The notes beneath the pieces are model-generated. The model searched no databases. It worked only from the letters and a program-made list of their open reading frames with translations, and was not told the origin of the DNA. Made by a program: the position numbers and the translations under genes. A stretch of 31,048 nucleotides of DNA from Escherichia coli (GTDB lineage: Bacteria > Pseudomonadota > Gammaproteobacteria > Enterobacterales > Enterobacteriaceae), in the NCBI RefSeq assembly GCF_003334385.1, contig NZ_QOWN01000054.1; one strand, 5' to 3'. Below are positions 26,837-27,155 of this stretch, piece after piece. Each line of letters begins with the position of its first letter. Positions within the stretch are counted from its first letter, which is position 1.

Positions 26837-27085
26837 AGGGTTCCTCAGCTCGCTGACAAGTCGACCCATCTGTCCATTGAGCGGACAGTTTGTGCAACAC
26901 TATTTTGTTGACCGGAAAATGGAACACTTTCCGCAATGCCTGTTGCTATCACGCTTAAACCATTTCATTGCGATTTACACAGAACGGACGTCCTGTCGCA
27001 GTATATTAAGTCGTCGATAGAAACAAGCATTGAAAGGCACAGCAGTAGTCAAACAGTGTGAAACGCTACTGGCGCCTTACAGCGC

Positions 27086-27116
27086 AAAAAGGCTGGTGAC
27101 TAAAAAGTCACCAGCC
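27086..27116 (-). terminator. rplL-rpoB intercistronic attenuator (partial terminator)
   Basis: Minus strand: GGCTGGTGACTTTTTAGTCACCAGCC hairpin (10-bp stem) followed by TTTTT, about 40 nt after the rplL stop. Confidence 0.7.
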
Positions 27117-27155
27117 ATCAGCCTGATTTCTCAGGCTGCAACCGGAAGGGTTGGC

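Follow-up and report, generated by a model that had tools for sequence, protein, structure and literature searches.

One of the oldest known bacterial attenuators lies between the ribosomal-protein gene rplL and the RNA polymerase gene rpoB, and it has been catalogued as P26; the element described below is this one, and it is real, functional and already known. P26 was predicted between two open reading frames (ORFs) that share its strand, 4 nt downstream of one of 366 nt and 151 nt upstream of one of 4071 nt, and a northern analysis in P. aeruginosa gave multiple bands of ~250 nt, which were attributed to untranslated regions of the flanking genes (Livny et al. 2006). P26 was later described as a partial terminator, with tL7 as its E. 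coli homologue, and read-through of P26 was found to control rpoB mRNA and to explain 70% of its variation among rifampicin-resistant mutants (Qi et al. 2014). In the same paper, tL7 is said to terminate 80% of transcripts (a figure taken there from Morgan and Hayward 1987), read-through promoted by rifampicin is quoted, and rpoB mutations with lower transcription efficiency are reported to raise P26 read-through. Other papers treat the spacer as an attenuator that uncouples ribosomal-protein from polymerase expression, and reporter constructs in still others employ the rplL terminator as a "stable" terminator. RNase III cleavage in the rplL-rpoB spacer is credited by citing papers to Barry et al. 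1980.

The window analyzed here, which is the whole stretch of 31,048 nt of E. coli DNA, carries rplKAJL-rpoBC on its minus strand, so that coordinates fall in the direction of transcription. The spacer between the rplL stop codon and the rpoB ATG is 319 nt (27155-26837). It is 100% identical to K-12 MG1655 4180926-4181244, and identity is at least 99% in 5419 of 5426 complete E. coli genomes. Two E. coli records have a spacer identity of merely 95-99%, and among 5425 spacer matches in the E. coli genome collection, 2 are on plasmid-typed records. RefSeq annotates zero features inside the spacer. The whole spacer folds at -127 kcal/mol (z = -8), far better than its shuffles. The MG1655 counterpart of the rplL coding sequence is b3986 (4180560-4180925). 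The genes and the features that immediately follow rplL are these:

27156..27521, minus strand: coding sequence of rplL (L7/L12), from the ORF list; stop codon TAA at 27158-27156
27139..27153, minus strand: hp1, a weak hairpin, CAACC-cuucc-GGUUG (-3.9 kcal/mol), which stacks directly on hp2
27119..27138, minus strand: hp2, CAGCCUGA-GAAA-UCAGGCUG, a perfect 8-bp inverted repeat and the first helix of Rfam P26
27091..27116, minus strand: hp3, stem GGCUGGUGACU/AGUCACCAGCC with loop UUUU, the terminator stem-loop of tL7 and the second helix of Rfam P26
27086..27090, minus strand: U tract, U5; the in vivo RNA 3' end is at 27086, its last U
27081..27085, minus strand: GCGCU box directly 3' of the U tract, at least 90% conserved in 75 Enterobacterales
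26834-26836, minus strand: rpoB ATG (26836-26834; MG1655 rpoB start 4181245), with rpoC the next gene

After the rplL UAA, the RNA therefore reads GC-CAACC-cuucc-GGUUG, CAGCCUGA-gaaa-UCAGGCUG, AU, GGCUGGUGACU-uuuu-AGUCACCAGCC, and UUUUU-GCGCU. An earlier note, made from the sequence, had taken this region to be the rplL-rpoB attenuator and leader, and the flanking genes, the identity to MG1655, and an Rfam match all agree with that assignment. In a scan against Rfam 15, RF00630 ("Pseudomonas sRNA P26") matches 27151-27090 on the minus strand with 74.5 bits (E = 8.6e-14; gathering threshold 36 bits) over model positions 1-66 of 66. The match starts 5 nt 3' of the rplL stop codon and lies on the rplL/rpoB strand, between both genes. 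At the same position, RF00630 is above threshold in 11 of 12 further loci, the exception being an AT-rich endosymbiont. Other Rfam matches in the window are sroH (17594-17754, plus strand, 201 bits) and a TPP riboswitch (11801-11901, plus strand, 74.8 bits); both are expected in this part of the E. coli chromosome, and a strong sroH 3' end is present in the Term-seq table discussed below. The best explanation, held at a probability of about 0.9, is that the region is the E. coli rplL-rpoB leader and that the known partial intrinsic terminator, variously named tL7, the rpoBC attenuator, or P26, occupies its first 70 nt.

The terminator itself is readily recognized. hp3 is the best-ranked match of a terminator scan, with 7 G-C pairs among its 11, a loop of 4 nt, and UUUUU following; this G+C-rich stem-loop with a U tract directly 3' has the form of an intrinsic (Rho-independent) terminator. 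It folds at -21.7 kcal/mol, and none of 200 shuffles did as well. The hairpin with T-tract that had been placed at 27086-27116 is present on the minus strand, divided into hp3 (27116-27091) and U5 (27090-27086). Term-seq, which the earlier note had named as a check, is available from published data: a 3' end at MG1655 4180995(+) scores 61408.7 in one data set and 23672.2 in another, and neighbouring 3' ends are much weaker, at 865 inside rplL and 1230 after rplJ (Adams et al. 2021, supplement). Position mapping equates MG1655 4180995 with window position 27086, and the RNA 3' end is thus inside the U tract; none is listed after hp2. RNA-seq values quoted in a 2026 paper, 8062 RPKM for rplL vs 1373 for rpoB (~5.9:1), are in line with ~80% termination. 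It had also been suggested that tandem hairpins tune the ratio of ribosomal protein to polymerase. The attenuator does set this ratio at the level of mRNA, as the termination and RPKM figures indicate, but nothing shows that the tandem arrangement itself does any tuning, and Term-seq has a single strong 3' end.

The abundance of this 3' end bears on another proposal, namely that a trans-acting small RNA, P26, arises from the 3' end of the rplL mRNA by transcription or processing. Rfam files P26 as a gene and calls it an sRNA, bands were seen with a P26 probe (Livny et al. 2006), the very abundant 3' end at 27086 is classed as "orphan" in the Term-seq table (Adams et al. 2021), and rplL contains a weak promoter-like match at 27281-27254. 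However, what is documented of such an RNA in E. coli is its 3' end, the multiple bands were ascribed to flanking untranslated regions in the very study that reported them, later work made the element a partial terminator (Qi et al. 2014), and a search of the accessible literature found no P26 target or chaperone association. The promoter-like match, like another at 26859-26832, scores 9/12, and the scan gave 8 such matches vs 3.6 expected by chance; neither match is taken as evidence. A trans-acting RNA is accordingly regarded as highly improbable.

The second perfect hairpin, which had been noticed near 27118-27138, is present at 27138-27119 with 8 perfect pairs. It had been said to come immediately after the rplL stop; it actually begins 17 nt after it, and the weak hp1 lies between, giving three hairpins rather than two. 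It had also been called an extra. This it is not: the RF00630 consensus holds both hp2 and hp3, and hp2 therefore belongs, with hp3, to a curated and widely conserved two-helix family. In the 73-nt RNA that begins at the stop codon and ends with the last U, the three adjacent hairpins hp1, hp2, and hp3 account for 74% of the ensemble. hp2 folds at -13.1 kcal/mol (z = -5.8), a value that none of 200 shuffles reached.

Conservation of these hairpins was followed in 80 Enterobacterales rpoB loci, from which the spacers were extracted; the first 100 nt of 75 distinct sequences were aligned. hp3 is paired in 99.2% of alignment cells, with U-A changed to C-G in 8 sequences and C-G to U-A in 9. hp2 is paired in 94.1% of cells and shows C-G to U-A compensation in 14 of the 75 sequences, so that both helices of the Rfam consensus carry compensatory changes here. 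hp1 is paired in 70.6% of cells and has double changes at 5 of 5 pairs; it is poorly aligned and is missing in several lineages. As a control, 3' partners shifted by 1-3 columns gave pairing of just 16-44%. Furthermore, RNAalifold predicted both hp2 and hp3 de novo from the whole-spacer alignment. The hp2 tetraloop (27127-27130) is GAAA, GAGA, GCAA, GCGA, or GGAA in Enterobacteriaceae, all of which fit GNRA; in other families of Enterobacterales, the loop is longer and unrelated. These comparisons argue that hp2 is real and under selection, and that it accompanies the terminator, within one module, as a conserved accessory helix.

What hp2 does is a separate question. As a second terminator it was considered and rejected: AUGGCU follows it in place of a U tract, and the Term-seq table lists no 3' end after it; therefore hp2 is not a terminator. 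A regulated switch is the more obvious alternative. Here the CAGCC of the hp2 5' arm would have two alternating partners, the hp2 3' arm and the basal GGCUG of the hp3 5' arm, and protein or ribosome traffic that opened hp2 would create an anti-terminator and yield more read-through into rpoBC. GGCUG is indeed present twice, 8 nt apart, and pairing between CAGCC and GGCUG is possible in 98.9% of cells in the alignment of 75 sequences. In addition, a UAGCCU box found upstream in marine contigs (see below) has the hp3 base as its sole partner. Yet the alternative helix has 5 pairs, vs 8 in hp2 and 11 in hp3, and the native three-hairpin fold already dominates the ensemble. The CAGCC:GGCUG helix is without a double change at any pair and shows just a wobble, whereas hp2 and hp3 covary. 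A second alternative, between the hp2 3' arm and the hp3 3' arm, is disrupted in 14 and in 11 sequences by substitutions that leave hp2 and hp3 paired, and its one compensatory change is confined to Xenorhabdus loci. In the alignment of 75 Enterobacterales, then, no covarying alternative helix that excludes the terminator was found, and both pairings were treated as by-products of the repeat, the first for want of covariation and the second because of the breaks. Nor would a ribosome be well placed to act: given its footprint, a ribosome at the UAA should cover hp1, not hp2. Because one helix is without a double change and the other is broken, the switch was ranked low and is considered very unlikely.

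The preferred reading of hp2, as a structured spacer and 3'-end stabilizer and neither a further terminator nor a switch, is one that we infer. Polymerase coming from rplJL transcribes hp1, hp2, and then hp3 with its U tract, where, by the published figures, about four-fifths of the polymerases release their RNA with a 3' end at 27086. The remaining polymerases pass through a structured leader, reported to be cut by RNase III, into rpoBC, and the outcome is polymerase mRNA at about 1/5 to 1/6 of the L7/L12 mRNA. Together with hp1, hp2 could hold the terminator hairpin away from the rplL stop, at no less than 33 nt, where the terminating ribosome would not reach it. It may also sequester the upstream copy of GGCUG, so that the hp3 3' arm finds its proper partner. 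After termination, hp2 and hp3 would give the abundant rplJL mRNA a protective, double-hairpin 3' end. A search of the accessible literature for deletion or compensatory-mutation data on hp2 turned up none.

More distant sequences were reached by a metagenome search with a DNA pattern anchored on hp3, which returned 54 contigs. TGCGCT is present in 54 of 54 matches, though it was outside the search pattern. In many of these contigs, RplL is just ~70% identical to that of E. coli, yet hp3 and the unselected downstream UGCGCUGUA are unchanged; at this level of RplL identity, hp3 plus UUUUUGCGCUGUA is identical to the E. coli sequence. The RNA core has thus been conserved more strictly than the protein encoded next to it. 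In marine contigs (L088-L130; e.g., L098:3697-3753), hp3 plus UUUUUGCGCUGUAGG is the E. coli sequence, and RF00630 still scores 44.5 bits. hp2 is replaced in the marine contigs by the hairpin AAUCUGU-cuaaac-ACAGAUU plus the UAGCCU box. The sequence of hp2 is thus lineage-specific, belonging to Enterobacterales and, by the Rfam consensus, Pseudomonas. Among 91 distinct spacers, with the hp2-replaced marine lineages included, hp3 lies 33-53 nt from the stop codon (median 39), and folding is better than that of shuffled sequences in 96% (z < -1.64), with a median z of -3.3. The constrained length and the folding make a structured spacer the common denominator.

In several of the Enterobacterales loci (L028, L039, L063, and L071), the rplL-rpoB spacer is 447-549 nt, with 100-230 extra nt 3' of the P26 module. 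L039 (NZ_SZPQ01000051.1) is titled "Martelella alba", the name of an alphaproteobacterium; the N-terminus of its rpoB product is 98% identical to that of E. coli, it carries an Enterobacterales-type P26 module, and the assembly is probably mislabelled or contaminated.

Since the conservation of hp2, hp3, and GCGCU exceeds the needs of a purely structural role, an extra, sequence-specific constraint on hp2, hp3, and the GCGCU box is suggested. This leads to the proposal that hp2-AU-hp3-UUUUUGCGCU is a sequence-specific site for a factor, such as RNA polymerase, NusA, NusG, or another RNA-binding protein, and that termination efficiency reports polymerase activity in a form of autogenous control. 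The linker, the hp3 stem, its UUUUUA loop, and the downstream GCGCU are near-invariant across Enterobacterales, and the persistence of the core in the distant contigs goes beyond what a generic terminator needs. NusA and NusG were reportedly found to increase read-through at this attenuator in vitro (Linn and Greenblatt 1992). The raised P26 read-through in rpoB mutants of lower transcription efficiency would also fit (Qi et al. 2014). On the other hand, any partial terminator responds to polymerase speed, making special recognition unnecessary; the covariation of hp3 in Xenorhabdus (UA to CG) means that some stem positions are free to change; and a literature search turned up no binding data. 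A dedicated recognition site is therefore thought unlikely, if less so than the switch or the small RNA.

The leader that follows the U tract (27085-26837) is 249 nt, close to the ~250 nt of further leader that had been expected, and its features are given here:

27043..27071, minus strand: hp4, 6 bp in E. coli with a 17-nt loop (27071-27066 / 27048-27043), from RNAalifold, just 3' of the attenuator
27051..27059, minus strand: ACACUGUUU in the hp4 loop, the 5' strand of a long-range helix
26934..27032, minus strand: long imperfect helix of ~24 bp with a variable tip (arms 27032-27006 / 26960-26934), the candidate RNase III processing stem
26897..26905, minus strand: AAAUAGUGU box, 154 nt downstream of the hp4 loop, the 3' strand of the long-range helix
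26870..26888, minus strand: hp5, CUGUCC-gcucaau-GGACAG, from the single-sequence fold, upstream of the rpoB ribosome-binding site
26834..26858, minus strand: rpoB translation start region CAGCGAGCUGAGGAACCCUAUG, with the Shine-Dalgarno sequence GAGGAA at 26846-26841 and the ATG; near-invariant (alignment columns 393-411)

The leader had been expected to hold the known RNase III site, and the spacer is, according to the papers that cite Barry et al. 1980, a documented substrate. There is one helix to which such cleavage might be assigned. The long helix is the sole long duplex of the leader; it contains a 17-nt inverted repeat, reaches 24 bp in single-sequence folds, and offers the about two turns of near-continuous double-stranded RNA looked for in an RNase III site. 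RNAalifold recovers 15 of its pairs, with covariation from C-G to U-A in 10 sequences and from A-U to G-C in 6. It is thus the natural candidate for the reported site. No RNase III entry for this site appears in the text and supplements of Gordon 2017 or in the main text of Altuvia 2018, as far as these were available.

Around this helix, a further structure is predicted. hp4 is paired in 95.3% of cells and has compensatory changes at 7 of 7 pairs, with G-C to A-U in 25 of 55 sequences. The ACACUGUUU:AAAUAGUGU helix is paired in 96.8% of cells, with double changes at 5 of 9 pairs in several different genera. The hp4 stem and the long-range pairing may together form a pseudoknot or a switch that encloses the RNase III helix. 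Rfam 15 has no family covering the long-range pairing of the hp4 loop, and a literature search on the rpoB leader gave just an unrelated paper on a cyanobacterium. The pairing is absent from the distant marine contigs, most of which retain the P26 core and GCUGAGGAACCC, a part of the rpoB start region. GCUGAGGAACCC is kept in 7 of the 9 metagenome contigs inspected, some of them with RplL just ~70% identical to that of E. coli; L104 is without it. For hp5, RNAalifold recovers 4 pairs, and U-A is changed to C-G in 5 sequences.

RNAalifold also pairs UUUUUGCGCU (27090-27081) with the rpoB Shine-Dalgarno region AGCUGAGGAA (26850-26841). If formed, this pairing would mask the ribosome-binding site until RNase III separated the two strands. 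Since UUUUUGCGCU and AGCUGAGGAA are both near-invariant, the alignment speaks neither for nor against their pairing, and no claim is made. An in-frame ATG is present at 26869, 33 nt 5' of the annotated rpoB start at 26836, with no stop in between (26869-26837); the program-made rpoB ORF begins there and is 11 codons longer.

Taken together, these results leave the standard picture unchanged. It is established that the element sets the amount of RNA polymerase core relative to the ribosomal stalk protein and that it buffers polymerase defects, with more read-through in rifampicin-resistant rpoB mutants. To this are added small points: hp2 is under selection as a part of the module, the spacer from stop codon to terminator is constrained in length and structure, and the leader contains a covarying long-range pairing without an Rfam 15 family. 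A linked pair of ideas goes further. The sequence of hp2-hp3-GCGCU is better conserved than that of the neighbouring L7/L12 protein, and the module might sense the state of polymerase or Nus factors in a sequence-specific manner instead of being a generic partial terminator. The putative leader domain built on the hp4 loop could control rpoB processing or translation. This combination is speculative and is given a low probability.

Among known systems, tL7, the rpoBC attenuator (Barry, Squires and Squires 1979-1980; Morgan and Hayward 1987), is the same DNA, and as far as the accessible accounts go, there is no difference. RF00630 P26 resembles the locus in both helices, in its position 3' of rplL and 5' of rpoB, and in strand. 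It differs in that the E. coli hp2 is 4 nt shorter, with a plain 8-bp stem and a GAAA loop, whereas the consensus stem has an internal loop; furthermore, the family name implies a small RNA, while the evidence points to a cis-acting partial terminator. The rpsO-pnp locus (Regnier and Portier 1986) shares the layout of a ribosomal-protein gene, a partial intrinsic terminator, and a long leader stem cleaved by RNase III, and rpsO-pnp and rplL-rpoB adjoin in a published list of RNase III substrates. The sequences of the two loci are unrelated. For pnp, the RNase III cut triggers autoregulated decay, whereas the consequence of cleavage is less clear for rpoB. Finally, the locus is like the trp, his, and S10 leader attenuators in that a terminator ahead of the regulated genes sets the level of transcription. 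Unlike them, it is without a leader peptide, and no covarying alternative of terminator and anti-terminator was found; it behaves instead as a constitutive partial terminator, and the state of the polymerase determines how efficiently it terminates (Qi et al. 2014).
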